In this document: positions 30,923-51,253 of the stretch, in pieces
Position numbering within the stretch: the stretch's first letter is position 1
Layout: every line of letters begins with the position of its first letter
Origin: Thermoleophilia bacterium
Lineage (GTDB): Bacteria; Actinomycetota; Thermoleophilia; BMS3ABIN01
Assembly: GCA_014859345.1 (NCBI GenBank)
Contig: JACUUL010000001.1
Span: 2,720-66,719, forward strand
DNA length: 64,000 nucleotides
Direction of reading: 5' to 3'
Program-made: the position numbers and the translations under genes
Notes under the pieces: model-generated
Told to the model about the DNA's origin: nothing
Database searches by the model: none
The model's input: the letters and a program-made list of their open reading frames with translations, nothing else

Positions 30923-30923
30923 G

Positions 30924-32430: not shown

Positions 32431-33199
32431 GCAACTTTGTCAGGCTCCGGACGAGTATCTCCAGATCGTGGATGGCGCCGGGCTCGGCCGGCCGGTCCAC
32501 CACCAGCAGTTCGATGCCCTCGGCGGCGGCCGCATCCGCCTTTTCCATAAGGCCGCCCTCGAGGCCGGAATCCTTGGTGAGCAGGATCCCTGCCCGGCTG
32601 TGCCGGATGCATGCCCGGTTGAACTCGACACTGAAGGGCGGATGGGCGGCGATGATATCGCGCGGATCCATGCCCAGGCGTTCGCACTCCGCCAGAGATT
32701 CGGGCACAGGCAGGATGCGGGCGGTGAAATCGATATGTTCCCGGACAAAAGGCTCCAGGTGGCGGGTGCCAACGGTGAGCAGGGCCCGGCCGGGGCGGTC
32801 CTTTAGAATCTCCAGGGCTTCGCTGAAGGAGGCGGCCCGGATGACGTCCGCTTTCGGGATGGGCGAGGCCGGCCGGCTGTACCGCAGGTATGGCAGGCCG
32901 GCCTGGCGGGCGGCGAGGCGGGCCTGGTCGCTGGCGGCCAGGGCGTAGGGATGTGAGCAATCGACGATGGCGGCGGCCCCCAGCTCGGAGGCGCGCCGGG
33001 CCATGCGGCAGGCATCCTTGGGTCCGGTATCCGCCAGGTGGCTGCCGGCCTCTGCAGACAGGACCGCCCCCCAGGGGGTGGCCACGCTGACGGTTACGCT
33101 GTAGCCCTCCGCCTGGAGGCGGGCGGCAGCCTGGTTTGCCTCGCCGGTGCCGCCTATCAGATAGAGGGCCGGAGCTGACCGCGTCTGACTCAAGCTCAC
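32420..33199 (-). CDS. cbiJ: Cobalt-precorrin-6A reductase
   Basis: 259 aa, LYLIGGTGEANQAA N-terminal dinucleotide-binding motif typical of CobK/CbiJ. Confidence 0.8.
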   Translation of the reverse strand: MSLSQTRSAPALYLIGGTGEANQAAARLQAEGYSVTVSVATPWGAVLSAEAGSHLADTGPKDACRMARRASELGAAAIVDCSHPYALAASDQARLAARQAGLPYLRYSRPASPIPKADVIRAASFSEALEILKDRPGRALLTVGTRHLEPFVREHIDFTARILPVPESLAECERLGMDPRDIIAAHPPFSVEFNRACIRHSRAGILLTKDSGLEGGLMEKADAAAAEGIELLVVDRPAEPGAIHDLEILVRSLTKLLAK

Positions 33200-35082: not shown

Positions 35083-35848
35083 GCGAAAATTCCTTGGAGT
35101 ACAGTTTCGATTCCTCGCCCTGCTGCGCCAGCGCCGCGCCGATGAGGATGATCGCGGTGCGGTCCATCTTGGCTTCCCTGATCGCCTCTCTCATATCCTG
35201 CACATTTGTGCGCAGCACTTTCTCCTGCGGCCAGCTGGCCTGCTGGACGATGACAACCGGTGTCTCCGGCGGATAATGGGCAGCCAGCCTCTCATGCAGC
35301 CTGCTGATCAGGCCGGCGCTCAGGAATACCGCCATGGTGGCGCGATGCTCGGCCAGCATGGCGATATCCTCCCTCTCAGGCACGGGCGTGCGGCCGGCGG
35401 CACGGGTTACGATCACCGTCTGGGAAACACCCGGAACCGTCAGCTCGCTGCTGATGGCGGCTGCGGCAGCGCCCAGAGAAGATACTCCAGGCACCACTTC
35501 CAGATCGACGCTCGCCTCGCGCAATTTGGCGATCTGTTCCTTGATGGCGCCAAAGAAAGCGGGGTCGCCGCTGTGCAGGCGCACCACCCTCTTGCCGTGC
35601 TTGACCCGGTCCACCATGATCTCGACTATATAATCGAGACAGAGAGGGGCGCTGTCGATGCGTTCGGCTTTCGGGCACAGCTCCAGCACCTCGGGACTGA
35701 TCAGCGAGCCGGCGTAGATGACGACATCGGCCTGCTCGAGCAGCCGCATCCCCTTTATAGTGAGCAAATCGGGGTCGCCGGGACCTGCCCCGACGAAATG
35801 GACCCTGTGGGTCACTGTTTTCCGATTCTTGTTTCTGTCAGGATTCAT
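35039..35848 (-). CDS. cbiF: Cobalt-precorrin-4 C11-methyltransferase
   Basis: VHFVGAGPGDPDLLTIKG...ADVVIYAGSL. Start codon uncertain (44-nt overlap with cbiGH if ATG 35848). Confidence 0.85.
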   Translation of the reverse strand: MNPDRNKNRKTVTHRVHFVGAGPGDPDLLTIKGMRLLEQADVVIYAGSLISPEVLELCPKAERIDSAPLCLDYIVEIMVDRVKHGKRVVRLHSGDPAFFGAIKEQIAKLREASVDLEVVPGVSSLGAAAAAISSELTVPGVSQTVIVTRAAGRTPVPEREDIAMLAEHRATMAVFLSAGLISRLHERLAAHYPPETPVVIVQQASWPQEKVLRTNVQDMREAIREAKMDRTAIILIGAALAQQGEESKLYSKEFSHGYRQGESGEPGES

Positions 35849-35954
35849 TTTGCATACCTTTCGCGGTTTTATCGTGCGGATCGTGCCCGGTCAAACATCG
35901 CCTGCTGAAGAAAGCAGCCAGGATATTCGAAGGGAAAGAAATTATAGTACACTC

Positions 35955-36665
35955 CTATGGCTGTTTAATCCAAATTATGGAAAAATACGGCAAATTAGCG
36001 GCTGCTTTGCGGTCGAGTTGTTCGATGATCTGCTCCGAGGGACCACCGAGCTCGATGGCAGCGCTGGCCCGGCCGAAGGCGCCGTCACTTTCCAGCAGAC
36101 CCAGGGCTTCCTCCGAGAGCGACCGCGGTTTCATGATAATGACCGAGCCGCCCATCTCCAGCGCTTTTTTTAAAGACCGGCTTGACCCCCCGGTCACAAC
36201 CGCCGTTGGCGAGTCTCCGGAAGCCAGGGGCAGGCCGATGGCCGCGGCAAAAGCATTCATGGCGGCGATGCCGCTTATCACTTCCACCTTTCCCGGAAAG
36301 CGCTCCGCCAGATAACCGAAGGTGCTATAAAAAAGCGGGTCTCCCAGCGAGAGGTAAGCCACGTCGCGGCCGCCGCGGGCGGCTTCCGCAAGGGACGCGG
36401 CGGCCTGCTCGTGTGCCTGGGCCAGGCTATCCCTGTTTTTGGTCATGGGCATGAGCAGAGGCAGCAGCGTAGTTTCAGGCCTCAGATGGATCCTGACCGT
36501 TTCCAGGGCCCGGCTGCGAGCGCCCCTCCGACGCACGGGAAAAGCTATGATGGCAACGTTCCTGATTATCCTCAGCGCTTTCAAGGTAACCAGCTCCGGA
36601 TCGCCGGGTCCGACGCCGACGCCGTACAGGATCCCGTTTTCGTTATTCACTTTCTCCGCTACCAA
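35955..36665 (-). CDS. cbiL: Cobalt-precorrin-2 C20-methyltransferase
   Basis: GILYGVGVGPGDPELVTLKALRIIRNV... Confidence 0.8.
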   Translation of the reverse strand: MVAEKVNNENGILYGVGVGPGDPELVTLKALRIIRNVAIIAFPVRRRGARSRALETVRIHLRPETTLLPLLMPMTKNRDSLAQAHEQAAASLAEAARGGRDVAYLSLGDPLFYSTFGYLAERFPGKVEVISGIAAMNAFAAAIGLPLASGDSPTAVVTGGSSRSLKKALEMGGSVIIMKPRSLSEEALGLLESDGAFGRASAAIELGGPSEQIIEQLDRKAAANLPYFSIIWIKQP

Positions 36666-36740
36666 ATACGGCCTCCATCATAAATCAAGGGTCAACATAA
36701 TATGGGTCGCCGTGCTCATTTGTGGTGTTTTTTGATTGTC

Positions 36741-38030
36741 TCATGCTCCCGGAACCGGTTTGTCACCCGTGAAGATGATCACCGGATTTTGCTTCTGCCA
36801 GTTATCTTTTGTTCTCCGCGCGACCGTCACCCGGGTCGCGGTGAGGTGCTTCAGGTCAGATTGCCCGAACTGCTGGTGGGCGATTTCCTTGGTTTTTTGA
36901 AGGAGCGCGGTCACCACGATGCGCCCGCCAGGAGCCAGCGCCCTGACGGCAGTCTTGAATATCGGAGCCAGCATCCCCCCGTTGCCGCCGATGATCACCA
37001 GATCGGGCGTAGCCAGGGTTTCCAGCCCCTCGGGAGCCTCCGCGCACACAACCTCCACCCGGGCGCCGAAGCGGCTGGCATTGGCTGCGGCCAGATGGCA
37101 CGCAGCCGGGTCCCGGTCAACGGCGATCACCTGCGCGGCGGGTTCCAGCAGCGAACATTCTACGCCGTACGAGCCGGTTCCGGTTCCTATATCCCAGATG
37201 ACCCGTCGTCCCGCCGGCCGGGCCCTGGATAGCATCACGGCCCGGATCTCGGACTTGGAAAGGGGAATCCCTGCCGCCCTGAGCCACAACCCGTCGGGAA
37301 TCCCGGGCGCGGGGGCCGGCGAAGGGATACGCTCATCCGGAGCTCCGCCCAGCGGCGCGTCGGCCTTTCGGTTCTCTCCGGGACTCCCTTGGGCAGACGG
37401 CCTTACCAGCAACAGGGAATGTCCGGGAAAAACCCCGGCCGCGATTTCCCGCAGGCTTCCTTCCCTGACAAGCTCTTCTTCTTCGCCCAGAAAGGCTCCG
37501 ACCGCAGCCTCACAATCAGGCATCGTGTCAAGCAGCCGCCCGGCAATCGCCTGTGGGGGGTTGCTCTCGTCACAGAAATACAGCACCGGCCCCGAAGGCG
37601 GTTCCCCAGACGCCTCGGCCGCCCGCCCATGCAGGCTGATAAGCCGCCAGTCCTGCCAGGGAAGACGCAGGCGCGCCGACATGAGCTGCACCGAGGAGAT
37701 TCCCGGCAACACCCTGATCCTGTCCTTGAAATGTTTCATCAGGTAGGAAAGAATGCTGTAACAGCCGGGATCCCCGCTGGTCAACACGCAAACGTCGGCC
37801 TGTTCCAGATGGCCGGCGATGAAATCCCGGGCCTCTTCGAAATCGGCGCCGATGGCGTGAGTCGATTCCGCCCCGGGAGCCAGATCGTCGGCCAGCCTGA
37901 GCAGCCGGGCGGCGCCCGCGAACACCCGGCAGCCGGCTATGGCCTGCCTGGCCTGAGCGGTCAGAAGACCGGGAGATCCGGAACCGGCGCCGACTACGAA
38001 CAGTGTGTGCCTGCCGTGGGTCATGGACAT
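36741..38030 (-). CDS. cbiET: Fused cobalt-precorrin-6B/7 C5,C15-methyltransferase, decarboxylating (CbiE-CbiT)
   Basis: N-terminal tetrapyrrole methylase domain (LFVVGAGSGSPGLLT). C-terminal class I SAM MTase (VIWDIGTGTGSYGVE). Confidence 0.8.
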   Translation of the reverse strand: MSMTHGRHTLFVVGAGSGSPGLLTAQARQAIAGCRVFAGAARLLRLADDLAPGAESTHAIGADFEEARDFIAGHLEQADVCVLTSGDPGCYSILSYLMKHFKDRIRVLPGISSVQLMSARLRLPWQDWRLISLHGRAAEASGEPPSGPVLYFCDESNPPQAIAGRLLDTMPDCEAAVGAFLGEEEELVREGSLREIAAGVFPGHSLLLVRPSAQGSPGENRKADAPLGGAPDERIPSPAPAPGIPDGLWLRAAGIPLSKSEIRAVMLSRARPAGRRVIWDIGTGTGSYGVECSLLEPAAQVIAVDRDPAACHLAAANASRFGARVEVVCAEAPEGLETLATPDLVIIGGNGGMLAPIFKTAVRALAPGGRIVVTALLQKTKEIAHQQFGQSDLKHLTATRVTVARRTKDNWQKQNPVIIFTGDKPVPGA

Positions 38031-38079
38031 GCCTTGCCAAATCTGTTTTTCAAGCTTTCAGTCATTCGGTATTACGTGC

Positions 38080-39183
38080 TTATCCGGAGCGGCCCACGAC
38101 CCGGCCGCCGCCGTCGGTCAGCAAAACCAGGGCCTTGAAGCCATACTCTTTCTTCACCCGCGCCGCCACCCGGCCGGCGGCGACGTCCAGCACTTCGAAA
38201 TCGCCCGCGCGGCGCAGGCTGCGGATTGCCGCCTCTGTGGTGGGCATCATTTCCAGCGCCGCTGCCCTTTCGCCGCTCAGTCCCGCGGCCGTGGCGCATT
38301 CCGCGAGCACGTCCAGCGGCATGGCAGACCGGCGCGAATGGGTATCGAAATCTCCACGGGCCATCTTGGCCAGCTTTGACACATGGCCGGCAAGCACGAC
38401 CTGCCTGAATCCCCTGTCCCGGGCCGCGCCCAGCATCATGCCGAAGAAATTGCCGGCGTGAATCACGGCTTCCGGCTGGCAGCCGGCCCCGATCGCGGCC
38501 TTTTCGCCCTTGGCCCCTGGCACCAGGACCGGTTCCCTTACCCCGGATGCCCGGGCCACATCCAGTTGCGGCAAAAGTGAATCCTGGTACGCGGCTACAG
38601 ACCAGGGTTCCACCCGTCCGGTCGTACCCAGGATGCTGAGCCCGCCCGATATGCCCAGCCTGGGATTAAACGTCCTCCGGGCCAGCCGGCCGCCCCCGGG
38701 TATGGAAACGGTGATGTCGGCTCCCTGCGGCAGCGCCAGCCGCGCCTCGGCCCGTATCTGCTTTAAGGGGGTTGGGTTGATGGCCGGCCGGCCGGGCTTG
38801 ACCGGCAGGCCTTCCCGGGTCACCAGACCGACGCCCTCCCCGCCTTTGACGAGCACGCGGCCGTCCCGCCGCGGGCTCGCGCGAACCGTGATCGTGACGC
38901 CGTCGGTGATGTCGGGATCGTCGCCCGCGTTCTTGACTACGGAGCAGGCTCCATCACCGTTCATGGTCACTTGAAAGACGGCTGCTTCCCCGCCGGGCAA
39001 AACGATCTCCACCGAACCGGCCTTCCCCGGGTTCGCCGGATAACCGTCATCACTATTGCCCAACCGGGGCAGGGAACCGGTGGCCGCCATCAGCGCCGCT
39101 GCCCGGGTGGCCGCCTGGGCGCACGCGCCGGTGGTGTAACCCCTGGCCGGCTTTTGGCTTTTTTTCTTGCCAGATTCCTTCAT
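38080..39183 (-). CDS. cbiD: Cobalt-precorrin-5B (C1)-methyltransferase
   Basis: RGYTTGACAQAATRAA. Start at ATG 39183 (MKESGKKK). Confidence 0.8.
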   Translation of the reverse strand: MKESGKKKSQKPARGYTTGACAQAATRAAALMAATGSLPRLGNSDDGYPANPGKAGSVEIVLPGGEAAVFQVTMNGDGACSVVKNAGDDPDITDGVTITVRASPRRDGRVLVKGGEGVGLVTREGLPVKPGRPAINPTPLKQIRAEARLALPQGADITVSIPGGGRLARRTFNPRLGISGGLSILGTTGRVEPWSVAAYQDSLLPQLDVARASGVREPVLVPGAKGEKAAIGAGCQPEAVIHAGNFFGMMLGAARDRGFRQVVLAGHVSKLAKMARGDFDTHSRRSAMPLDVLAECATAAGLSGERAAALEMMPTTEAAIRSLRRAGDFEVLDVAAGRVAARVKKEYGFKALVLLTDGGGRVVGRSG

Positions 39184-39217
39184 TTCCAAGGCGATCTTCA
39201 GTCTGCCGTCCGCGTTT

Positions 39218-40054
39218 TCAGACCTGGGCGGGCTCGATCCCGCTTCGCGCCAGCAGCCGCCGCTCAAGCTCCTTGCGGGCCATGCCCACCGTGAGAGGCA
39301 GTTCGGTCAGATCGGGAAACACTTCAAAGAGATACGAGATGCGCGGCAGCCGCAGATGGCAGCGCTCGATCAGCCCCCGGCTGCCGAAGACCTCCTTCAG
39401 TCCGCCCCTGACCGCAACCCGTCCGGACCTGAGCAGGCAGACCTGTTCCGCGTAGAGCGGTATCAGGTCTACGTCATGGGTAGCCATGACGATCGTCATG
39501 CCGGCGCGGTTGAGACTGAGCAGCAGACGCATGATGCGTTTCTCTCCCATTGGATCCAGGCTGGCGGTGGGCTCATCCAGGATGAGCACCCGCGGCTGCA
39601 TGGCGAGCACCCCGGCTATTGACAGCCGTTTTTTCTGTCCATGGCTCAGATGATGGATGGGCCGCCCCAGCAGGCTGTGGATTCCCACCTGAGCGGCGGC
39701 CGCCTCCACCCGCCGCCCGACCTCATGGTCAGACAGGCCCAGGTTGCGCGGACCGTAAGCTATGTCATCCTCCACGGTGGGGGCAAAAATCTGGTCATTG
39801 GGATCCTGAAAGACGAAACCCGCTATCCTGTTAATCTTCTCGAAACTCTTCTTTTCCACAGAAATCCCGTTCACGGCCACTGTGCCAGCCTGGGCTGCCA
39901 GCAGCCCGTTCAGGTGCTTGAGCAGCGTCGATTTCCCGGAGCCGTTGGCTCCCATAACCGCCAGGAAAGACCCCTCCGCCACCTCGAGCGACACTTCTTC
40001 CAAAGCCTTGACGCCGCCTGGATAAGTGAAGCAGAGATTTCTGACGCTGATCAC
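39218..40054 (-). CDS. cbiO: Cobalt ECF transporter ATP-binding subunit
   Basis: Walker A GANGSGKST, ABC signature, Walker B ILILDEPTASLD. A probable GTG start at 40054 forms a GTGA overlap with the cbiQ stop. The track ORF extends further upstream. Confidence 0.8.
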   Translation of the reverse strand: MISVRNLCFTYPGGVKALEEVSLEVAEGSFLAVMGANGSGKSTLLKHLNGLLAAQAGTVAVNGISVEKKSFEKINRIAGFVFQDPNDQIFAPTVEDDIAYGPRNLGLSDHEVGRRVEAAAAQVGIHSLLGRPIHHLSHGQKKRLSIAGVLAMQPRVLILDEPTASLDPMGEKRIMRLLLSLNRAGMTIVMATHDVDLIPLYAEQVCLLRSGRVAVRGGLKEVFGSRGLIERCHLRLPRISYLFEVFPDLTELPLTVGMARKELERRLLARSGIEPAQV

Positions 40055-40818
40055 CGCCAGCCCTCCAGGGCCAGAACCACAAGAAGGACAAGCAGCAGGG
40101 CAGTCGCCAGCCCCGCGCCCACGTCGAGGCGCGACGGCCGGGGCAGGTTCCCGGATACCAGCGAACCGGCTCCGCGGCAGCTCATCGCCTCCGCCGAGCG
40201 CAGGCCCCTCTCGTATACCCTGAGAAAAAGCGATCCTCCCAGCATCCTGCTGCTGGAAAGGCCCGCGGCCGCCGAGGTCCACCCCAGGCGCGACCGCTGA
40301 GCCTCGCGCATCCGCGCGTACTCGGCGTATATATCAAATAAATACCGGTAGGTTAAAAGCACCACTTCGACAAATGTGGCCGGCACCCGGAACCAGCGGA
40401 GGGCCATGCAAAGGCGGTTGATGGGCGTGGTCACTCCCAGAACAACCACGACCAGCGCGCCTGATACCACGCGAAGGGAAAGATAAATGCCGTGAAGCAG
40501 GCCGTCCAGATGCAAGTCGATAAACCAAAGGCTGGCAAAGACCGCCCGGCCCTCAAAAACGGTCTGGGAAGCGATGATGAAAATGGCGAAAGTCGCGGGG
40601 AAAGCGATCATTATCAGCTGGCGCCGGTAGGGAACGCGGCCCGCAACCATAAGCAGCAGCATCGCAAAGGATATGACGAGGGGCACCAGGAATGTGGCGG
40701 CCAGCAGGTTCACCGCCAGCAGGCCGGCCACCGACGCTATCTTCACCCGCGGGTCTACCCGGGAGAGCCAGCCGCCGCTCCAGGCGTAATCGTCTCTGCC
40801 ATGTGACGCTCCGGTCAT
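40051..40818 (-). CDS. cbiQ: Cobalt ECF transporter transmembrane (T) component
   Basis: 255 aa polytopic membrane protein, EcfT/CbiQ pattern, located between cbiN and cbiO. Confidence 0.8.
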   Translation of the reverse strand: MTGASHGRDDYAWSGGWLSRVDPRVKIASVAGLLAVNLLAATFLVPLVISFAMLLLMVAGRVPYRRQLIMIAFPATFAIFIIASQTVFEGRAVFASLWFIDLHLDGLLHGIYLSLRVVSGALVVVVLGVTTPINRLCMALRWFRVPATFVEVVLLTYRYLFDIYAEYARMREAQRSRLGWTSAAAGLSSSRMLGGSLFLRVYERGLRSAEAMSCRGAGSLVSGNLPRPSRLDVGAGLATALLLVLLVVLALEGWR

Positions 40819-41168
40819 CGGGTACGCTCCTTGCCGGACGCTCCAGCAGCGGCTCGGGGCGGAAGACGGGCTCCGCTGTTTTCGTCCGGATTAGGATTAC
40901 GGCCGGCTTCTTTCTCCCTGCCGCCGGCAAAGAGAACGCGCCAGTAATAGCCGGCCGCGAAACCGGCGGCGGCTCCCCCGGCCAGAAAGAGGAAAAGCAG
41001 CAAATCTCCATCGATGCTCCAGGGCAGGATCCGGGACTCGCCGGCGCCGGCTTCAGCGGCCAGCGAGAGCGAGACTGCCTCCGTGATATCGCCGTCCCAT
41101 TGGGACCGGGTCAGGAACACGCTCGTTAAAAACACGGCAACAAGCATCAGAATGATCAAGCGTTTCAC
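40815..41168 (-). CDS. cbiN: Cobalt transport protein CbiN
   Basis: 117 aa, two TM helices, typical size and position between cbiM and cbiQ. Confidence 0.7.
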   Translation of the reverse strand: MKRLIILMLVAVFLTSVFLTRSQWDGDITEAVSLSLAAEAGAGESRILPWSIDGDLLLFLFLAGGAAAGFAAGYYWRVLFAGGREKEAGRNPNPDENSGARLPPRAAAGASGKERTR

Positions 41169-41824
41169 GGGCGCATCACCACCCCGGCCAGCAACTCGGC
41201 CCGTTGCCTGGCGATAAAGACAACCACCCCTGCCGTGAGCAGGCCCTCGGCGATGGCCAGCGGAACCTGCGTCGGCAAGAAAGAGGCGAAAGCGGCGGCC
41301 CAGACCAGGGTCACAGGCTCCTGACCGTGCAGCGATAACGCCAGCTGCAGAGCCGTGATGGCGTAAGTGACCAGGTCGCCGGTAAAGCCGGCCATGCCGG
41401 CGGCTGCGCCAATGCCGAATCCCAGCCGGCGGGAAACCCTGAAGGCGGCGAACCCTGCCAGTGACCCGCCGATCGCCATGGCGAAAACGTTTGCTCCCCA
41501 GGTGGTGATGCCGCCATGCGCGAAAAACAGGGCCTGCAGGAGCAAGGCCACCGCTCCCAGCACTATCGCTGTCAGGGGTCCCAGAATGATGGCCGCCAGC
41601 GGCGTGCCGCAGGGGTGGGAGACGGTGCCCAGGCCCGGCACAGGCACCGGCATCAGTGAAATCACGAACACGAAGGCGCCCAGCAGTCCCACCAGCGCCC
41701 GGGTCTGGGGCAGTTCGTTAAACCTCTTCCTGAGGCTTGCCAGTCCCGTACCTATGAAAGCAAGCGCCGGCGCGTACCAGGCCAACGCCTGTCCGGCGGG
41801 TATCAAGCCTTCCGGGATATGCAT
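41165..41824 (-). CDS. cbiM: Cobalt ECF transporter substrate-capture component CbiM
   Basis: MHIPEGLIPAG N-terminus, hallmark of CbiM/NikM. The ATG at 41824 overlaps the stop of the upstream gene (TGATG). Confidence 0.85.
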   Translation of the reverse strand: MHIPEGLIPAGQALAWYAPALAFIGTGLASLRKRFNELPQTRALVGLLGAFVFVISLMPVPVPGLGTVSHPCGTPLAAIILGPLTAIVLGAVALLLQALFFAHGGITTWGANVFAMAIGGSLAGFAAFRVSRRLGFGIGAAAGMAGFTGDLVTYAITALQLALSLHGQEPVTLVWAAAFASFLPTQVPLAIAEGLLTAGVVVFIARQRAELLAGVVMRP

Positions 41825-43068
41825 CAGGATCTCCTCATCCGGCCGCAATTTCCTCCGGCATGGATACCGGTGGCGTTTGGGCCGCGGGCGTCCCTGGGCG
41901 CGCCGGCGGCTGCCAGCCGCATCAGCGCGTTGGCGGCGGCAACGGCCACGTTGCTGCCGCCCCGGTGTCCGGGAAGGGTTATGTGGGGCAGGCCGGAATC
42001 CATCAGCGCCCGCTTGCTCTCAGCGGCGCCGATAAAGCCTACCGGGACCCCCACTATCAGAGCCGGCCGCGCCCCGGTTTCTTCTGCCAGCCGCAGGCAT
42101 TCGAACAGGGCGGTGGGGGCGTTGCCGATGACGATGATAGCGTCGCCGAGAGCGCCCGCGGCTCGGCGGATTCCCGCCGCGCCGCGCGTAATCCCTTCCC
42201 TTCGCGCCAGATTTAGTGTTTCCTCGCCGGTGATGCGGCAGCAGACATCCAGTCCCATCCTGGCGGCGGTGGGCTCTATCCCCGCCGCGACCATTTTGAC
42301 GTCACAGATGATCCGGGCATCCCCTCTGCCGGAGCTGCCGCTGGCCCTGGCGCCCCTCCAGCCGCCAGCATCCAATCCCCTGCCGGCATCGTTTCCGGTC
42401 CCGACATCATCATCTGCGCCGGTGCAGCCCGCGGCGGCGGCGCCATTCTCGAGGATGCGGAGGGCGGATCCGACAGCATCCCTGGAGAAAACCAGTTCTC
42501 CGGCCAGCCCCGGATCGCCGGTGGCATGAACCACGCGCCTGGTTATCTGATACTCGGGCGAAGCCGGATCGGAAGGCTTCAACATCTGGTCGATGACCTC
42601 AAAACTTTCTGACTCGATCGGGTGCTGGGGAAGGCTGGCGCGTTCGCTGCTGCCTGGAGGCGGACCGCTGCCACAGCGGCCGGCTACCGACTCTTCGATC
42701 CTGGCCAGCATCACATCCACCAGCCGTGAATCGGCGCCCAGCGAGCCGGCCAGGACCAGTTCGACCCCGGGAAGTTCCGTTTCCAGCTTTCTCAGCTCTT
42801 CGGGGATGTCAAGTTTCATGTGATTCCCGGCAAACAGGAAATATGGAGTCACCACGATTCGGCGGACGCCTCCGGCAGCCAGGTGGCGGCAGGATTCCGC
42901 CAGTGTGGGACGGTTAAACTGAAGTGAAGCCGCCGTCACCGGATATTCACAACGAGCGGCCAGCCGCCCGGCGACCCATTCCAGCAGCAGCGCTGCCTCC
43001 GGCGCCCGGCTGCCGTGCCCCAGCACCACCACGCCTGTTTTCAAAGCGTTGCCGAATTTTGCCGTCAT
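41824..43068 (-). CDS. cbiXC: Fused sirohydrochlorin cobaltochelatase (small CbiX-type) / cobalt-precorrin-8 methylmutase (CbiC)
   Basis: N-terminus VVVLGHGSRAPEA...PYFLFAGNH (CbiX). C-terminus IVIGNAPTALFECLRL...IVGVPVGFIGAAESK (CbiC). Confidence 0.7.
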   Translation of the reverse strand: MTAKFGNALKTGVVVLGHGSRAPEAALLLEWVAGRLAARCEYPVTAASLQFNRPTLAESCRHLAAGGVRRIVVTPYFLFAGNHMKLDIPEELRKLETELPGVELVLAGSLGADSRLVDVMLARIEESVAGRCGSGPPPGSSERASLPQHPIESESFEVIDQMLKPSDPASPEYQITRRVVHATGDPGLAGELVFSRDAVGSALRILENGAAAAGCTGADDDVGTGNDAGRGLDAGGWRGARASGSSGRGDARIICDVKMVAAGIEPTAARMGLDVCCRITGEETLNLARREGITRGAAGIRRAAGALGDAIIVIGNAPTALFECLRLAEETGARPALIVGVPVGFIGAAESKRALMDSGLPHITLPGHRGGSNVAVAAANALMRLAAAGAPRDARGPNATGIHAGGNCGRMRRS

Positions 43069-44534
43069 GCCGCCCTCCCGGACCCGGCGCAGGCTTCGAC
43101 GAAGCGTGCAGCCGCGCCATGATCCCCGGCGAAATGAATATGAACATACGAGGCCAGCAGGTTCCCCCGGCAGAAGCCATCCTGCTCCACTTCAGGCCGT
43201 TTGCTGGAAAAACAGTCGTAAGCCAGGCGGTCTTCCTGCCATTTGACCCGGGACCAGTGAAACTCGTGGCCTCGAACGCGTTCGCCTGCCTCCATCAGGA
43301 TGTTCGAAACCCGCGCCCTGGCTTCCACGTATCCCAGCGCCTGCCGGCGGCCGGTCATCCGGGCCTCGCTGTCAATGACCCCGGCCATCTCCCGGCGGCG
43401 GCCATTGACCTCCACTCCCCGGCAAAGATACACCATGCCGCCACACTCGGCATACGCCGGCAGGCCTGCCCGCAAGGCCGCCGCCACGGAGCGGCGCATG
43501 GCGCTGTTGGCTTCCAGCTGGCCGGCGAACACTTCCGGAAAGCCGCCGCCCAGATACAGGCCCTCGCAGGCGGGCAGGCCCTCATCGCGCAGCGGGCTGA
43601 ACCGGACCAGTTCGGCGCCGGCAGCTTCCAGCGCCTCCAGTCCGTCCGCATAATAAAAAGAGAAGGCCTCGTCCCTGGCCACTGCGATGCGCGGGCAGCG
43701 CCCGCCGGAATGATTCGGGCCCGGAGCAGCCTTGCCAGAGCCGCCTTCTGCCGCCATTTTTTCCGCCGGCCTGTCCGGGCCGGATCCGGTTTGTGCGCCC
43801 GGGATTCCCTGATTCTTCAACGGGCCTGCGTCTCTCGCAGATCCGCCGCCGGCGCCGCCGGCCATGGCAGCCACGGCTTCGATGTCGACGTTTCGCCCGA
43901 CGTGGTCGATGATGCTTTCCATCTTCCGGCCTGCTGCCTCCAGTTCGCTTTCCGGCACCAGGCCCAGTTGCCGCGAGCCCAGCGTTATGCCTTCCGCCCG
44001 CGGAATCTCGCCCAGAACCGGCACCCCCGCCTCGCGGGCGGCGTCCCTGAGAACGCGGGCGTGACCGGGGCTGCCCACGTTGTTTAAGATGACCCCCGCC
44101 AGGTCAATACTCCGGTCGAACCGGTCAAACCCCGTCAGCAGCGGAGCCAGGCTGCGGCCCAGCCGGGCGCAGTCGGCCACCAGCACCACAACGGCGCCGG
44201 TCAAACGCGCCATTTCGGCAGTGCTTCCCTCATCCCTGCCGCCGGCGCGCCCGTCGAACAGTCCCATCACTCCCTCGATGACGCCGATGTCCGCTCCGGC
44301 GGCGCCCCGGGCGTAAATTCTGCTTACCACCGCAGGCGATGTGAGCCAGGTATCAAGATTACGGGACAAGACTCCCGTCGCTCTCTGATGATAACCCGGG
44401 TCTATATAATCCGGGCCAACCTTGAAAGGAGCCACCGTAAAACCCTGCCGCCGCAAAGCCCCCATAATCCCGGTGGCGACAGTGGTCTTTCCAACGCCGC
44501 TGGCGTGTCCGGCTATTACCAGCGGGCGCTTCAC
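43065..44534 (-). CDS. cbiA: Cobyrinate a,c-diamide synthase
   Basis: MKRPLVIAGHASGVGKTTVATGIMGAL, plus a C-terminal glutamine amidotransferase domain. Confidence 0.85.
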   Translation of the reverse strand: MKRPLVIAGHASGVGKTTVATGIMGALRRQGFTVAPFKVGPDYIDPGYHQRATGVLSRNLDTWLTSPAVVSRIYARGAAGADIGVIEGVMGLFDGRAGGRDEGSTAEMARLTGAVVVLVADCARLGRSLAPLLTGFDRFDRSIDLAGVILNNVGSPGHARVLRDAAREAGVPVLGEIPRAEGITLGSRQLGLVPESELEAAGRKMESIIDHVGRNVDIEAVAAMAGGAGGGSARDAGPLKNQGIPGAQTGSGPDRPAEKMAAEGGSGKAAPGPNHSGGRCPRIAVARDEAFSFYYADGLEALEAAGAELVRFSPLRDEGLPACEGLYLGGGFPEVFAGQLEANSAMRRSVAAALRAGLPAYAECGGMVYLCRGVEVNGRRREMAGVIDSEARMTGRRQALGYVEARARVSNILMEAGERVRGHEFHWSRVKWQEDRLAYDCFSSKRPEVEQDGFCRGNLLASYVHIHFAGDHGAAARFVEACAGSGRAA

Positions 44535-45625
44535 GCCAGCGCCTTTTTCAGTGCGGAAATCAACTGGTAGTTCTCCTGGTCCGAGCGCACCGCCACCCGG
44601 ATGAACCGGTTGCCCAATTCCGGGAAGGAGCGGCAGTCACGCACCATAATGCCCATGCGCCCCAGGCAGTCAGCCAATTCATCCGAACCGGCGGTAGCGA
44701 GACGGCAGAGGATGAAATTCGCCTCCGATGGCAACGGGTCGATGCCGGGCAGGGAAGCCAGAGCCCGGAACAGCCGGAAACGGGACCGGAAGTTCACCCG
44801 TCTGGCCTCGAGCAGATAGGCGGTATCCGCCAGGGCCGCCCTGCCGGCGGCACGGGCAAAGACGTTTATATTCCAGGGAGGCATCATCTCCCGCAGCGAC
44901 AGGGCAAAATCCTCCCGCGCAACCAGGCAGCCCAGCCTCAGGCCCGCCAAGGCATGCGATTTGGTAAAAGAACGCACGACGAAGATTCCCTCTGCGGCAT
45001 CCCCGGTCAGGACAGAGGCGCCCTCACCGGCGAAATCGATGAAAGCCTCATCCACCACCAGGCCGGCGCCGGCGGCCCGGCATTGCCGCCACAACCAGAC
45101 GACTTCATCAGCCGGGACCAGATAGCCGGTGGGATTATTGGGATTGCAGAGAAACACCAGGTCATGACCCGCCGGGCGGATCCGTCTCACATCAAGAGCA
45201 AAATCTTCCTCTTCCCTTAACTTGAAGGAGTCGCAGGCGGCGCCGGCCGGCACGCAGGCGCGGCGGTACTCGGAAAATGTCGGTTCCACGACCAGGACCC
45301 GCGCGGGCTTGAGGGCTCTGACCAGCCAGTAAAGAACCTCGATGCTGCCGTTTCCGGGAACTACCCGGCAGGCAGGCACGTCCAGATATGCAGCCATCTG
45401 CTCCGCCAGTCCGGCCGCGTCCTCTTCCGGATAGTGGGAGATCTCCAAAGCCGCTCCCCTGACGGCAGCGGCCACCCCGGCAGGCGGTCCCAGCGGGTTG
45501 ATGCTGGCGCTGAAATCGAGAAGTTCCTCTTTGGGGATTCTGTAGCGCCGGGCAGCATCATCACGCCGGCCGCCATGGACCGGCGCCTTCCCGGACAACG
45601 TATCGGTATTACGCAAATCAGTCAT
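44531..45625 (-). CDS. cobD: L-threonine-O-3-phosphate decarboxylase (aminotransferase class I/II fold)
   Basis: Histidinol-phosphate aminotransferase-like PLP enzyme, positioned between cbiA and cobO/cbiB as in cob operons. Confidence 0.65.
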   Translation of the reverse strand: MTDLRNTDTLSGKAPVHGGRRDDAARRYRIPKEELLDFSASINPLGPPAGVAAAVRGAALEISHYPEEDAAGLAEQMAAYLDVPACRVVPGNGSIEVLYWLVRALKPARVLVVEPTFSEYRRACVPAGAACDSFKLREEEDFALDVRRIRPAGHDLVFLCNPNNPTGYLVPADEVVWLWRQCRAAGAGLVVDEAFIDFAGEGASVLTGDAAEGIFVVRSFTKSHALAGLRLGCLVAREDFALSLREMMPPWNINVFARAAGRAALADTAYLLEARRVNFRSRFRLFRALASLPGIDPLPSEANFILCRLATAGSDELADCLGRMGIMVRDCRSFPELGNRFIRVAVRSDQENYQLISALKKALA

Positions 45626-45704
45626 TCAAACTCCATCGTCGGCAGCAGTTTTCCGGAAACCTTCCGCGGTGGAAAGAAAGCGATCTTCCCGACCGTCCGG
45701 ACGT

Positions 45705-46298
45705 TCAATATTCCGTTCCTTCCCGGGCCCGGATACCATTCCGGAACGGGTGTTTGATCTTCTTCATTTCCGTGACGTAATCACAAATCTCCACCAGCTC
45801 CGGAGGCGCGTGCCTGCCTGTCAGCACCAACTCCAGGCTGTCGGCCTTGTCCCTGACAACCTCGATCAACTCCTGAAGAGGCACGAGTTCCTGCTTGACC
45901 ACATGGGTTACCTCATCAAGTATGACCAGGTCGTGATTGCCGCTTTTCACCAGCTCTTTCGAAACCTCCCACCCCCGGGCTACCGTCTGCCCGCTTTCCT
46001 CAACTTCACGTTTTTCTTCTTCCGTGGCGAACCGGGAGGCGCCGAACCGCTGGATGGTGAACGGCCCGTCCATCTTTTCCACGAACACTATCTCTCCCGT
46101 CTTCATCTTCGTGCGTTTCAGAAACTGGACCATGGCTACCCGGCGATCCCGCCCCAGTGCCCTGAGGGCCAGACCCAGAGCCGCGGTGGTCTTTCCCTTG
46201 CCGTCTCCGGTGTACAGATGAACCAGTCCCTGCCTGCGGGTCTGCTCCCAGATGACTTGCGCCAGCAGGTCATGATCCGGGGGTCTCTGGTCGTTCAT
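45705..46298 (-). CDS. cobO: Cob(I)yrinic acid a,c-diamide adenosyltransferase (CobA/BtuR type)
   Basis: HLYTGDGKGKTTAALGLALRALG P-loop. Start at ATG 46298, directly after the cbiB stop. Confidence 0.8.
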   Translation of the reverse strand: MNDQRPPDHDLLAQVIWEQTRRQGLVHLYTGDGKGKTTAALGLALRALGRDRRVAMVQFLKRTKMKTGEIVFVEKMDGPFTIQRFGASRFATEEEKREVEESGQTVARGWEVSKELVKSGNHDLVILDEVTHVVKQELVPLQELIEVVRDKADSLELVLTGRHAPPELVEICDYVTEMKKIKHPFRNGIRAREGTEY

Positions 46299-47287
46299 GG
46301 CCCGCCTCCGGTGCTTGAAACCCGCCTTCTTCCTCCGAGGCCCGCCAGCCATCTGAGCGCGGTGCCCGCTGCCAGGATCACCAGGGCCACGCCGTACATG
46401 AGACTGACAGCCCGGCCGATGTCGGCGCGGCCGGGAGGCCGTCCGGTTCCCATGGGCCGGGCATCAACCCTGCGGCCTCCATAGCAGCGGGCGCCTCCCA
46501 GACCGACTCCGAGGGCGCCCGCGAAGGCGGCCTCGCAAACGCCGGCGTTGGGGCTCTCGTGCCCGGCCCCGTCACTTAGCCAGACCTGGAGCGCTCTCCT
46601 GGCGTCGGCCCTTGCCAAGGGGCTTGCGACAACCGTTGCCAGCGCCGTGAGCCGCGCCGGCGCGTAACCGGCCAGATCATCAAGGCGGGCGGCTGCCCAG
46701 CCGAAGTCACGGTAGCGGTCGTTTTTGTAACCAATCATCGAATCCATGGTGTTAACCATCCTGTATGACAAAGCCAGCGGCGCTCCCCCGATGAACCCGT
46801 AAAACATGGGGGCCACGATCCCGTCATTGGTGTTCTCCGCCACGCTTTCCACCGCGGCCCTGGCCACCCCGGCCTCGTCCAGGCGGCCGGTGTCGCGGCC
46901 GACGATGCGAGCCACCTGCAGGCGGCCGGTTTCCAGGCTGTCGCCCAGTCCCTCCTCCACGTCGCGGGCCGCCTCTCCGAGGGAGCGTACGGTGATTGCC
47001 GAGGCCAGCATGGCCGCCTCGGCAACTCCGGCCAGGCGGCGCGGCGCAATCCTCAGTATTCCCCGGGCGGCAAGATAAGTACCCGCGGGCAGCGCCACGG
47101 CGATCAATATCCCGGCCAGGCGCCTCCAACCCGGGTTCAGTCCAGCCCTGTCCGCCGCCCTTTCAGCTTGCTCCACAACTTTTCCCATCAGGCAGACGGG
47201 ATGCACGGCCTCGGCCGGCTCTCCCACGGCCAGATCCAGCGCCAGCGCCAGTCCCGGCTTCATGCCCGGGCCAATGTTTCCGGGCAT
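46295..47287 (-). CDS. cbiB: Adenosylcobinamide-phosphate synthase
   Basis: ALALDLAVGEPAEAVHPVCLMGK, CbiB/CobD membrane protein pattern. Confidence 0.8.
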   Translation of the reverse strand: MPGNIGPGMKPGLALALDLAVGEPAEAVHPVCLMGKVVEQAERAADRAGLNPGWRRLAGILIAVALPAGTYLAARGILRIAPRRLAGVAEAAMLASAITVRSLGEAARDVEEGLGDSLETGRLQVARIVGRDTGRLDEAGVARAAVESVAENTNDGIVAPMFYGFIGGAPLALSYRMVNTMDSMIGYKNDRYRDFGWAAARLDDLAGYAPARLTALATVVASPLARADARRALQVWLSDGAGHESPNAGVCEAAFAGALGVGLGGARCYGGRRVDARPMGTGRPPGRADIGRAVSLMYGVALVILAAGTALRWLAGLGGRRRVSSTGGGP

Positions 47288-47390
47288 TACCGGCGCCCCT
47301 TTAAAACCTGCTCCCGCCCGCCCTCAGCAGTCTGCCACGGACGACGGCTGTCTTTCGGGAGATTGGGGCGGCTCACGCGCCAGGCAGCGT

Positions 47391-48950
47391 TCACGCCAAT
47401 CCTGCTATCTCATATATTTTCTCAATATCAACAGAGTTCCTCAGCGCCACGGCCAGCCGGTCGTATTCGTGCTCTTTCGCCGCGGCCCGGTCTATCAGCG
47501 GCAGCTCGGCCGGCATGCCGAACCAGGACAGCAGGCCTGCCAGCACCTCGTTACTGTCAAAGAATCCATGCATGTATGTGCCCAGCACCAAACCGTTTTC
47601 GCTTACGGCTCCGTCCGGGCCGGACCGCGTCCCCAGCAGATGCGCCGCCTGGGGCCCGAGGTATGTCTGACCCATATGAATCTCATAGCCGGACACTGCG
47701 GTGCCCCTCGGCAGCAGGGCGTTATAGCCGGTGATCCTCCCTGACTGCTGCCTCGTTTCCTTTTCAGGCTCAAAGACCGTCTCTACGTCAAGCAGGCCCA
47801 GGCCCTTGACGCTGCCGGCGCCGCCGTCCAGGCCGCGCCGGTCAAGGACTTTCTTGCCCAGCATCTGAAACCCGCCGCAGATGCCGATCACAGGCGTGCC
47901 GCCCTGTGCCCGGCGGATTACCTCAGCGGCAATGCCGCTCGACCAGAGAAAGCGCAGATCGGCGACCGTGCTCTTGGTTCCGGGGATGATGATCAGATCT
48001 GCCCCGCGCAGGCCGGCGGCGTGCTCCACGTAGCCGCATTCAAACCCGGGACAATCGCTCAAGGCATCAAAATCGGTGAAGTTGGAAAGACGCGGCAGTC
48101 TCAAAATGCGTACCCGGACGGGGTCGCCATGCCTGGCAGCCCTGTCCCCGCCGCCGCGCACGTCCGAGGGGAAGAGCGCCCTCGCGCCCTGTCCAGGGCC
48201 GGGTGGTTCAGATGAACGCTGCGGCAGCCCCACGGAATCCTCCTCTTCGACGCGCAGGTCCTTTACATAGGGAACCACGCCCAGCACCGGCCGCTGGCAA
48301 TGGCTCTCGAGAAAATCAAGTCCCGGCTCCAGGATAGTCCTGTCTCCCCGGAACTTGTTGATGATGAAGCCGGCAACCCTTTGCCGGTCGCTGTCCTGAA
48401 GCAGTTCCATGGTGCCCACCAGTTGGGCAAACACACCGCCGCGCTCGATGTCACCCACAAGCAGCACCGGCGCCTCGGCCATCTCGGCCACAACCATGTT
48501 GGCGATATCCCGCCCCCGGAAGTTCACCTCGGCAGGGCTGCCGGCCCCTTCGATGAGCACGACTTGGAAATCTCGTCTCAGCCGGTCCAGAGAGTCGTAT
48601 ACCGCGTCCATCAGCCCCATTTTGTAATCGTGGTAGTCTTGCGCGGTCATGGTAGCCACAGGCTTGCCCTGCACCACGACCTGGGCGCCGGTATCGGTGG
48701 TGGGCTTGAGCAGCACCGGGTTCATGTCGGTATGGGGTTTGACCCGGGCCGCTTCCGCCTGGACCACCTGCGCCCTGCCCATCTCGCCGCCCTCGGCGCT
48801 GACAAAGGAATTTAGCGACATGTTCTGGGATTTGAACGGCGCCACCGAGAAGCCATCCTGAGCCATGATGCGGGCCAGTCCGGCTACCAGCAGGGTTTTA
48901 CCGGCGTGGGAAGCGGTACCCTGGATCATTAGTGTCTTTGCCGCTGGCAT
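47391..48950 (-). CDS. cobQ: Cobyric acid synthase
   Basis: 519 aa. LMIQGTASHAGKTLLVAGL N-terminus plus C-terminal GATase domain. Confidence 0.85.
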   Translation of the reverse strand: MPAAKTLMIQGTASHAGKTLLVAGLARIMAQDGFSVAPFKSQNMSLNSFVSAEGGEMGRAQVVQAEAARVKPHTDMNPVLLKPTTDTGAQVVVQGKPVATMTAQDYHDYKMGLMDAVYDSLDRLRRDFQVVLIEGAGSPAEVNFRGRDIANMVVAEMAEAPVLLVGDIERGGVFAQLVGTMELLQDSDRQRVAGFIINKFRGDRTILEPGLDFLESHCQRPVLGVVPYVKDLRVEEEDSVGLPQRSSEPPGPGQGARALFPSDVRGGGDRAARHGDPVRVRILRLPRLSNFTDFDALSDCPGFECGYVEHAAGLRGADLIIIPGTKSTVADLRFLWSSGIAAEVIRRAQGGTPVIGICGGFQMLGKKVLDRRGLDGGAGSVKGLGLLDVETVFEPEKETRQQSGRITGYNALLPRGTAVSGYEIHMGQTYLGPQAAHLLGTRSGPDGAVSENGLVLGTYMHGFFDSNEVLAGLLSWFGMPAELPLIDRAAAKEHEYDRLAVALRNSVDIEKIYEIAGLA

Positions 48951-49012
48951 GCCTCAGGCCCTTTCCGGAAACCCGGGCACGGGAGCCGGCGTTTCTCTGT
49001 CCACGATTCTGA

Positions 49013-49549
49013 TCATTTCACCCTCACCGGCAAACCGGACACACACAGATAGACCTCGTCGGCAACCGCGGCCAGTTTCTGATTGGCGCGCCCGGCCAGG
49101 TCGCGGAAGACGCGGGCCAGAGCGTTGTCGGGGACGATGCCCATTCCCACCTCGTTGCTTACCAGAATGACGCGGCCGTTACCTTCCGATCGTGAAACGC
49201 AAAGTCCGGCCAGCCGTTCCATTTCCCCATCCACCAGCTTCTCCAGCCGCATCCCGGAGCCGGGCCCCTGGCTCAGCAACAGATTTGAGATGTATACAGT
49301 GAGGCAATCCACCAGCACGGTGCCGCCGCCGGCAAGCGCCGCCTCCACGGCGCCGGGCAGATCATCGTAAGCTTCCACGGTCTGCCATTCCCGGGGCCTT
49401 CGGCGCCGGTGTCCGGCTATGCGGTCGCCCATTTCGGCATCGCCGGCCCGGGCGGTGGCGATGTAGGTTACCCGGCCGCCATGCTCGCGGGCCAGCCTTT
49501 CCGCCAGGCTGCTCTTGCCGCTCCTGGCTCCTCCGGTAATGAATATCAT
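49013..49549 (-). CDS. cobU: Adenosylcobinamide kinase / adenosylcobinamide-phosphate guanylyltransferase
   Basis: MIFITGGARSGKSSLAERLA P-loop, 178 aa. Confidence 0.85.
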   Translation of the reverse strand: MIFITGGARSGKSSLAERLAREHGGRVTYIATARAGDAEMGDRIAGHRRRRPREWQTVEAYDDLPGAVEAALAGGGTVLVDCLTVYISNLLLSQGPGSGMRLEKLVDGEMERLAGLCVSRSEGNGRVILVSNEVGMGIVPDNALARVFRDLAGRANQKLAAVADEVYLCVSGLPVRVK

Positions 49550-49564
49550 GCCGTCCTCAAGACG

Positions 49565-49592
49565 GAAAAAGCCCTCTTCAAACGAAGCGGGC
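49565..49592 (-). terminator. Intrinsic terminator/attenuator (expression platform) between riboswitch and cobU start
   Basis: Minus strand reads GCCCGCTTC-GTTT-GAAGAGGGC followed by TTTTTCCGTCTTGAGG-ATG. Stem 9 bp with one mismatch. The RBS follows immediately. Confidence 0.5.
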
Positions 49593-49639
49593 TGGAAAGA
49601 AAATCGGTTTTCAACCTAGCCACTCCTATCCGCGAAGAG

Positions 49640-49800
49640 CGTTTGAGGCTAGAGCCTGCGGGCAGGTTTCCTGGCTCCCGGCGCCATGACTTCTGTTGAA
49701 TACATACGCGCGCGCCGGCTACAGTGGCGGGACCGCGCCGGCATCAAACCGGCTTCCCCTGCACGCCCGGTCTCAAAAATTCCGGACGCATGCCACAGGC
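49640..49800 (-). promoter_or_regulatory. Cobalamin (B12) riboswitch in the 5' leader of the cobU-led cob operon
   Basis: Minus strand reads ...GCAGGGGAAGCCGGUUUGAUGCCGGCGCGGUCCCGCCACUGUAGCCGG...GAAGUCAUGG...GGAGCCAGGAAACCUGCC... It contains the B12-box GCCACUG plus the conserved GGGAAGCCGGU..UCCGGCGCGGUCCCGC and GAGCCAGGA.ACCUGCC blocks of RF00174-type cobalamin riboswitches. Confidence 0.75.
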
Positions 49801-49861
49801 TGCAGCTATAATGACTGATTTTGGAAGTATACGGGCAGGCGAGAGGTTTTTCAAGAATGCT

Positions 49862-51253
49862 TTAGCGGAATATCAGCTCATAAAAATAAAACCCCGTAAA
49901 AAAGGCGTAGAAGAGGACCGCGGCAAGGGTGGCGGCTATCCACACGGGTCCGGGGGCGAGCGCACGGGGCAGCCTCCGCAAGTTCAGGTAGAGGGTAACG
50001 GATACGACCACGGGAATATGCGCCGCGGAAATTGCCCCGCCTATGAACAAAATGCCGACTGGATCACGGAGCAGGAGGTAAACCGCGACCGGCGCGGCCG
50101 TTAGCACCGCGATGACATAACCGTTCCTCAGAAGCAGCCGCCGCCGCGGTTTGGAGGATTCATCAATCCCGCGGCGCCTCAGCAGTATCAAGGTGGCGTC
50201 GGCATACATTCTTCCCCATCCATCCTGGTTCGCCAGAACAGAGCCCCACAGGGCCACAAAGATGCCGGTGACAAAAACCCAGGTTCCCGCGGGACCCCAT
50301 ACATCGGAGAGAAGCCTGGCGATATCCTCGGCCACCCGGATTCCCTCGGGGACGATCCCGAGCGGAGCCAGCAGCTCGGCGCCGAGTGTAAGAAAGGAAA
50401 CGTTGACGACAGTCGCTCCGACCACGCCTATGGCTGCCGTCGTTCCGGTGATGATCATCCATGAGCGCAGGCTCGCCTGCCTGCCGGCTGCCGAAACGGC
50501 CTTGCCTTGTTCGTCATCCTGCTCTTCCTCCTCGAATACAGGCCCTCCAAAGCCCCGCGCCGCAACCCAGTACGAGTACCACATCATGCCGGCCGCTCCC
50601 GCCAAAAGAAATCCAAACCAGGGAAGCACGAAATGCGCGTCGAAGTCCAGAGGCAGGACCGGAGCCAGGCCATGTGCGTACGGGCCGAATCCGGGAAAAA
50701 CAACGATCGCGGTGACGACCGTCGATACAATAAGAACAGCGGCCAAGCCGGCCGTCACCTTTTCCAGATGCCTGTACCTTCCGCTGACCACCAGCGCGCT
50801 CGAGACAAGAATAATGCCGACCGCAAAATAAGCCTGCCTTTCCGGCAGGACGATCCCCAGCGCGCTGCCGATCAACGCGGCAATGCCGGCCACCACCACG
50901 ATGCCGCTGGCCAGCCCAGGCAGAAAAATGAGCCATACTATCCATCCCCTGGGACCCGGAATGCCGTAATACCCTTCGAGAATGGATCTCCCGGAAACGA
51001 CGGTGTAACGGCCGATTTCACGAATGATTACCCAGGTCAGAAAAGCCACCAGCAAGGCAGCCCAGAGAAGTTCATACCCGTAGCGCGATCCGACTCTGGG
51101 CGTAAACAGTATCGAGCCGGACCCTACGGAGGAGACCATCCAGAGGAGCCCCGGGCCGTACCATTTCAGCCGTCTCCATCCGCCTGGAGCGACAGCCACC
51201 CTGTCCCGGCAGTGCTCCCGGCCGTTCTGTTGGGGAGTTTCGATATCGGGCAC
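49862..51253 (-). CDS. Nramp-related membrane transporter with a non-canonical metal-binding motif
   Basis: 463 aa. YGPGLLWMVSSVGSGSILF...GSRYGYELLW follows the Nramp TM1 pattern (GPGfl...YiDPGN...G..fGY.LLW), but DPGN is replaced by SVGSGS. Confidence 0.5.
   Translation of the reverse strand: MPDIETPQQNGREHCRDRVAVAPGGWRRLKWYGPGLLWMVSSVGSGSILFTPRVGSRYGYELLWAALLVAFLTWVIIREIGRYTVVSGRSILEGYYGIPGPRGWIVWLIFLPGLASGIVVVAGIAALIGSALGIVLPERQAYFAVGIILVSSALVVSGRYRHLEKVTAGLAAVLIVSTVVTAIVVFPGFGPYAHGLAPVLPLDFDAHFVLPWFGFLLAGAAGMMWYSYWVAARGFGGPVFEEEEQDDEQGKAVSAAGRQASLRSWMIITGTTAAIGVVGATVVNVSFLTLGAELLAPLGIVPEGIRVAEDIARLLSDVWGPAGTWVFVTGIFVALWGSVLANQDGWGRMYADATLILLRRRGIDESSKPRRRLLLRNGYVIAVLTAAPVAVYLLLRDPVGILFIGGAISAAHIPVVVSVTLYLNLRRLPRALAPGPVWIAATLAAVLFYAFFTGFYFYELIFR

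Follow-up and report, generated by a model that had tools for sequence, protein, structure and literature searches.

A predicted corrinoid-sensing transcriptional OFF switch with a shortened aptamer periphery in the leader of a B12 operon of a Thermoleophilia bacterium

The leader of an 18-gene operon for B12 biosynthesis and cobalt uptake in a Thermoleophilia bacterium carries a cobalamin riboswitch that very probably acts as a corrinoid-sensing transcriptional OFF switch. We base this reading on the membership of its aptamer in a known RNA family, on alternative folds of the leader and their energies, on the conservation of its elements in orthologous leaders and on the gene content downstream. 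Two near-isoenergetic folds, found here and in the three closest relatives, are the anatomy expected of a transcriptional OFF switch.

A cobalamin aptamer in the cobU leader

The window, that is, the whole 64-kb stretch of DNA analysed here, was scanned on both strands with Rfam 15. This gave a match to the cobalamin family RF00174 at 49812-49643 on the minus strand (60.1 bits, E 2.2e-12), with an alignment over model positions 1-189 that is full length and not truncated. The original prediction had placed a cobalamin riboswitch in the minus-strand leader of cobU and named the RF00174 score on this strand as its check; once run, the check bears the prediction out, as the score lies well above the gathering score of 31.5 bits. 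The covariance model confirms the aptamer as a genuine member of the cobalamin riboswitch family, and it is the sole RF00174 hit in the window. One other Rfam match was returned for the window, a tRNA gene at 57370-57297 (minus strand, 72.7 bits). The parts of the aptamer are as follows.

49812-49643, minus strand: cobalamin riboswitch aptamer, by the RF00174 covariance model
49806-49793 paired with 49661-49648, minus strand: long P1 stem, from the RF00174 alignment and folding
About 49789-49762, minus strand: P2 arm, an 8-bp stem GCGUCCGG/CCGGGCGU with an 11-nt loop
About 49757-49736, minus strand: core with GGGAA and P4
Following the core, minus strand: P5/L5, GG-UCCCG-CC
49718-49679, minus strand: P6/P7 with a short 27-nt distal hairpin
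49677-49661, minus strand: AGCCAGGAAACCUGCC, the B12 box in the strict sense, which supplies the 3' strands of P6 and P3

The complete core set of the family is present: a P3-P6 junction with GGGAA, the P4 hairpin, L5 with CCCG, ACUGUA and the B12 box AGCCAGGAgACCuGCC. The three closest orthologous loci (L001-L003) come from metagenome-assembled genomes of Thermoleophilia, Gaiellales and Actinomycetota, and in all three the GGGAA, P4, L5, ACUGUA and B12-box blocks are identical to those of the window. Both sequence blocks that had been quoted in support of a riboswitch occur on the minus strand, GGGAAGCCGGUUUGAUGCCGGCGCGGUCCCGCCACUGUAGCC at about 49757-49716 and GGAGCCAGGAAACCUGCC at 49678-49661. 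The motif GCCACUG is likewise present, but it had been mislabelled as the B12 box and belongs to the core at the P5/P6 junction; historically, the name B12 box denotes the conserved block that makes the 3' sides of P3 and P6 (PMC2258182). The span first assigned to the element, 49565-49800, was about right at its downstream end, where the U-tract of the terminator runs to 49566, one nucleotide short of 49565, but too short at its 5' end, as the aptamer begins at 49812 and is preceded by a promoter at 49854-49826.

The P2-P3 junction (49762-49752, minus strand) reads GUGCAGGGGAA, and the corresponding sequences of L001-L003 are GUCCAAGGGAA and similar, the family consensus being uuAAaaGGGAA; this clade seems to be without the usual T-loop-like L2B sequence. 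We also noted an 18-codon ATG frame within the aptamer (49705-49649, minus strand) that ends at the UAG of the invariant CUCUAG block CUCUAGCC. We rejected it as a chance upstream open reading frame: L001 has no start codon in this frame, the starts in the other leaders are shifted and no Shine-Dalgarno (SD) sequence precedes it.

Among 185,579 species representatives searched, the nearest CobU proteins were 64-69% identical to that of the window, and the exact CobU sequence was found only in Logan assembly SRR11917416, whose DNA matches the window at 100% identity across 2.5 kb. An RF00174 aptamer lies directly upstream of cobU in nine related loci, namely L001-L003 and six Geobacter-type loci. 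A further contig, from a fermentation metagenome, carries two divergent cobalamin aptamers (480-655, minus strand, and 1872-2022, plus strand); the second is directly followed by AAGGAGG and has no P13-type hairpin, which suggests direct control of the SD sequence in that case.

The aptamer lacks the distal domain that its orthologues retain

A point that the original prediction had missed is that the aptamer has lost its distal periphery relative to its orthologues. Where the model has 43 positions for the P8-P11 domain (acccccaauaugCCACUGg...cCGGGAAGGcggggg), the window has 15 nt, and P7, a CCGGCGC/GCGCCGG stem, is simply capped by the 27-nt hairpin. In contrast, L001-L003 and all Geobacter-type leaders retain the distal domain GCCACUGG...CCGGGAAGGC. 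Because this domain is missing, the RF00174 score is lower: 60 bits for the window compared with 89-107 for the orthologues, or 89-135 when the Geobacter-type leaders are included; it is the lowest among the cobU leaders.

The shortened periphery bears on the subclass of the aptamer. As in Cbl-I riboswitches, a P2 loop-stem-loop lies between P1 and P3, but the long P7-P11 extension of P6, which in that class folds back against the core, is absent. Cbl-II riboswitches combine a short P6 extension with the absence of a P2 arm (short J1/3); of these features the window shares only the short extension, as P2 is present. The atypical yvrC riboswitch of Bacillus subtilis has a P2 arm and a P6 extended by a simple P7 hairpin, and the aptamer of the window, being neither Cbl-I nor Cbl-II, resembles this hybrid type, the resemblance being one of architecture only. 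In Cbl-I riboswitches, the distal domain helps to shape the adenosyl pocket (PMC7367189). As the architecture resembles that of yvrC, the ligand selectivity of the aptamer is uncertain.

The loss of peripheral structure relative to orthologues appears to be specific to this lineage and is the sole mildly unusual trait of the element, although shortened outer domains are already known elsewhere. One could imagine that the lineage recently deleted the whole P8-P11 domain and thereby possibly changed which corrinoids are bound, for example, from AdoCbl alone to a promiscuous range; we regard this scenario as rather doubtful. If it were true, the window and L001-L003 would provide a natural matched pair for the role of the peripheral domain in ligand discrimination in vivo.

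Alternative folds in the expression platform

Between the aptamer and cobU, direct folding and comparison with the orthologous leaders revealed the following elements.

49652-49616, minus strand: P13-type hairpin, stem 49641-49635 with 49627-49621, loop CGCGGAU at 49634-49628
49652-49647 (CUAGCC) paired with 49621-49616 (GGCUAG), minus strand: optional helix that encloses P13 in the OFF fold
49640-49571, minus strand: antiterminator of the ON fold, 49640-49615 with 49595-49571
49593-49566, minus strand: intrinsic terminator of the OFF fold, stem 49593-49584 with 49579-49570, loop GUUU, then the U-tract
49565-49551, minus strand: SD hairpin CCGUC-UUGAG-GACGG, with SD GAGGA at 49558-49554; the cobU ATG follows at 49549-49547

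The terminator stem, from A49593-U49570 to C49584-G49579, comprises nine standard pairs and one G.A mismatch. It is followed by about five U residues (UUUU at 49569-49566), so that a GC-rich hairpin and then a U-tract precede the regulated gene in sense orientation, as expected of an intrinsic terminator. Folded alone, the P13 hairpin has an energy of -6.7 kcal/mol and the terminator hairpin one of -13.6 kcal/mol. These results fit the 9-bp hairpin and U-tract that had been reported immediately before the ribosome-binding site, as the SD sequence and the cobU ATG (49549) come next.

The two folds of the platform exclude each other. The antiterminator uses up both arms of the terminator hairpin, which identifies the first fold as the antiterminated state and the second, in which P13 and the terminator form, as anti-antiterminator plus terminator. 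Over the platform (49650-49540), the antiterminator fold is the minimum-free-energy structure at -33.3 kcal/mol, compared with -32.8 kcal/mol for P13 plus terminator. Constrained folding placed the ON and OFF structures within 0.1-1.1 kcal/mol of each other in all four leaders, that of the window and those of L001-L003.

Invariant platform blocks in the four leaders are GCUCUAGCC; CUCUUCGCGGA.GGAGUGGCU.GG, which corresponds to the P13 hairpin and the antiterminator arm; and GCCC.CUUC...GAAG.GGGCUUUUU, which corresponds to the terminator. The spacers and terminator loops vary and the region before the ATG cannot be aligned; the cobU start itself is conserved, the protein beginning with MIF in all four. 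The terminator stem is kept in L001-L003 with different loops and a tract of U5-7, and the position of its mismatch varies among the leaders (G.A, U-G, G.G). Support for the terminator and antiterminator takes the form of conservation, with almost no compensatory covariation among these four closely related sequences; the collections searched yielded no additional leader from the lineage of the window itself. Alternative folds and conservation together uphold the terminator-type expression platform that had been predicted.

A simple terminator scan listed nothing in 49000-50400, presumably because of the stem mismatch. This miss, together with a stem that contains one mismatch and a tract of 5 U, makes the terminator a modest one, and the hairpin and U-tract might accordingly be a constitutive attenuator or no terminator at all, with control exerted through Rho or mRNA stability. 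We consider this extremely improbable, as four leaders retain the hairpin with its U5-7 tract while the loops vary, an antiterminator using both terminator arms is the minimum-free-energy fold and the leader anatomy requires no Rho-dependent or stability-based mechanism.

The regulated step could also be translation initiation, alone or together with transcription, if the SD sequence of cobU were sequestered in the 49565-49551 hairpin. Many cobalamin riboswitches are indeed translational, including those of Mycobacterium tuberculosis metE and ppe2-cobQU (PMC11260477), and here a hairpin of 5-6 bp (-7.0 kcal/mol) holds GAGGA, with 2 nt between its end and the AUG. However, this hairpin is identical in the ON and OFF folds, nothing ties it to the ligand state and it is absent from the three orthologous leaders, all of which keep the terminator. 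On these grounds, SD sequestration is unlikely to be the regulated step, and we judge a translational switch to be highly improbable. The transcriptional reading, which is the one we favour, makes use of conserved elements of the platform.

A putative L5-L13 kissing loop and the question of decay

An L5-L13 kissing loop is common to all classes of cobalamin riboswitches (PMC7367189). In the leaders that we collected, a P13-type hairpin with a CGnGG loop and covarying stems lies 17-29 nt past the B12 box in ~30 of 37 non-redundant sequences. The window loop and L5 can form 4 bp (GCGG:CCGC, about -7 kcal/mol), whereas typical relatives reach 6 bp and -12 kcal/mol. As L5 (CCCG) is invariant in every leader collected, it yields no covariation signal for the kissing loop and the complementarity can be read against chance only: a 4-bp match to L5 is attained by 3.7% of random 7-mer loops. 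We propose that the P13 loop of the window is the kissing partner of L5, for which conservation and precedent speak in the main.

Weaker kissing-loop complementarity than in typical relatives, the loss of 43 model positions that every orthologue retains and the lowest score among the cobU leaders might together mark a decaying relic, in which the loss of P8-P11 has ended ligand binding or badly impaired it, leaving the operon constitutive or otherwise controlled. However, all core positions are intact and the same as in the orthologues, the two folds of the platform remain balanced and the promoter is conserved. In addition, a metagenome scan for a short spacer between core and B12 box returned 49 loci with short-periphery aptamers, and the 19 of these that were scored with RF00174 reached 56-106 bits. 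The distal P8-P10-P11 domain has been described as optional (PMC2258182), and yvrC, which has the same architecture, binds cobalamins (PMC7367189). Truncation in itself is thus no sign of decay, and a relic is, in our assessment, highly improbable; a functional OFF switch remains the preferred reading.

Promoter and proposed mechanism

A sigma-70-type promoter precedes the aptamer.

49854-49826, minus strand: promoter with TTGAAA (49854-49849), a 17-nt spacer and TATACT (49831-49826)

It matches the consensus at 10 of 12 positions and is the sole promoter-like site in 49000-50400. The pattern CTTGAAAA-N17/18-TATACTT is unchanged in the window and L001-L003 while the spacer sequence varies, a phylogenetic footprint that lends good comparative support to the view that the promoter is real. 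Transcription would then start near 49819. A gene for an Nramp-family divalent-metal transporter (49862-51253, minus strand) ends 8 nt before the -35 element with no terminator in between, and read-through from this gene into the riboswitch leader is possible. The same Nramp neighbourhood is present at another locus (L130).

Together, these elements suggest a model in which transcription would begin near 49819 at the conserved promoter and the aptamer (49812-49643) would fold first. Without corrinoid, 49640-49615 would pair with 49595-49571 to form the slightly more stable antiterminator, and polymerase would proceed into cobU and beyond. A corrinoid bound in the P3-P6 junction would instead allow L5 (UCCCG) to kiss the P13 loop (CGCGGAU), which would stabilize P13 and the enclosing CUAGCC:GGCUAG helix and so lock up the 5' arm of the antiterminator. 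The freed 49593-49570 hairpin and its U-tract could then form, and transcription would stop 17 nt before the cobU start codon. Classic feedback repression of B12 synthesis, as had been proposed, would be the outcome suggested by this anatomy.

One leader ahead of 18 genes

Cobalamin riboswitches lie in the 5' leaders of genes for B12 synthesis, B12 transport or B12-independent isozymes, and this one is followed by cobU and 17 further B12 or cobalt genes.

31660-49549, minus strand: run of 18 genes, ~18 kb, identified with NCBIfam and Pfam models, most above curated cut-offs, in the order cobU, cobQ, cbiB, cobO-type adenosyltransferase, cobD, cbiA, cbiX-cbiC fusion, cbiM, 117-aa ORF, cbiQ, cbiO, cbiD, cbiET, cbiL, cbiF, cbiGH, cbiJ and cobS

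All genes of the run are on the minus strand, neighbours either overlap or leave gaps of no more than 106 nt, and no strong or convincing terminator was seen in any of the intergenic gaps. We infer that the genes from cobU to cobS form a single transcript. Past cobS and a gap of 160 nt, genes for an OsmC-like protein, a DsrE-like protein and a uroporphyrinogen decarboxylase (URO-D) follow on the same strand (28990-31499, minus strand).

In the cob operon of Salmonella, cbiMNQO is embedded among the biosynthesis genes in the same manner as here. The original prediction had found it notable that cbiMNQO lies in the same transcript rather than behind a riboswitch of its own. For cbiM, cbiQ and cbiO the placement is as stated, but the arrangement has long been known, as a 2004 study (PMC545781) already described cbiMNQO beside cbiX in a cluster regulated by B12 in Geobacter. 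We also considered a second riboswitch ahead of cbiM and rejected it: cbiM and the preceding cbiX-cbiC gene share 25 nt, which leaves no room for a riboswitch of its own, and the window contains one Rfam cobalamin hit.

Several gene models in the run deserve comment. The 117-aa ORF between cbiM and cbiQ (40815-41168, minus strand) occupies the position of cbiN. Its product contains two hydrophobic segments and has a C-terminal tail rich in Arg, Pro and Ala, and searches of Pfam and NCBIfam gave nothing even with the limit relaxed to E <= 10. The protein could be a highly diverged CbiN, which is a guess from position, or an unrelated small membrane protein. The fusion protein (41824-43068, minus strand; 414 aa) joins CbiX, a small chelatase, to CbiC, precorrin-8X methylmutase, and ~120 residues between the two domains match no family. 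The cobO-type gene was assigned as cob(I)yrinic acid a,c-diamide adenosyltransferase. Its ORF (45705-46352, minus strand) overlaps the preceding gene by 58 nt and matches its families from residues ~28-39, and the cbiO ORF (39218-40282, minus strand) overlaps its neighbour by 232 nt and matches its family from residue ~77. The mechanically called starts of both ORFs are probably over-extended.

Comparison with known cobalamin riboswitches

As an annotation, the element places an ~18-kb anaerobic-pathway B12 operon of an uncultured bacterium, including cobalt uptake, under one predicted corrinoid-sensing leader. It also adds a short-periphery hybrid aptamer whose orthologues keep the full periphery, a possible comparison set for ligand selectivity. 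Otherwise, the riboswitch is real but ordinary and opens no new question.

The operon can be compared with the cbi clusters of Geobacter (Rodionov et al. 2004, PMC545781), in which one riboswitch likewise precedes a large anaerobic-pathway cluster with cbiMNQO embedded beside the cobalt chelatase gene cbiX. The Geobacter-type loci that we collected (L008-L024) also share the order of riboswitch and then cobU. Gene order and fusions (cbiX-cbiC, cbiGH, cbiET) differ from those of Geobacter and Salmonella, and the CbiN position is taken by the unrecognizable 117-aa ORF.

Among aptamers, the AdoCbl riboswitches of Thermoanaerobacter tengcongensis and Symbiobacterium thermophilum, which represent Cbl-I, share with the window P1, the P2 loop-stem-loop arm, the P3-P6 four-way junction, GGGAA, ACUGUA, the B12 box, a C-rich L5, a downstream P13, a place before B12 genes and OFF logic, which in the window is predicted. 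In contrast to these, the window is without the long P7-P11 extension that defines Cbl-I and buttresses the adenosyl pocket, and its P2-P3 junction departs from the consensus.

The ppe2-cobQ-cobU switch of M. tuberculosis (Kipkorir et al. 2024, PMC11260477) is also actinobacterial, has a truncated P6 extension and serves an operon with cobQ and cobU. However, it is compact, switches off translation and has a regulatory uORF, whereas the leader described here has a predicted intrinsic terminator and no conserved uORF.

An architectural counterpart is the atypical yvrC riboswitch of B. subtilis (Chan & Mondragon 2020, PMC7367189), which is promiscuous and binds AdoCbl, MeCbl and HyCbl. Past the family core the two have no sequence relationship, the L4 loop of the window (UUUGAUG) is different, and yvrC controls a transport locus whereas the switch of the window precedes biosynthesis genes. 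Both nonetheless combine a Cbl-I-like P2 arm with a short, simple P7, a P13 kissing hairpin, which in the window is a proposed one, and a terminator/antiterminator platform.
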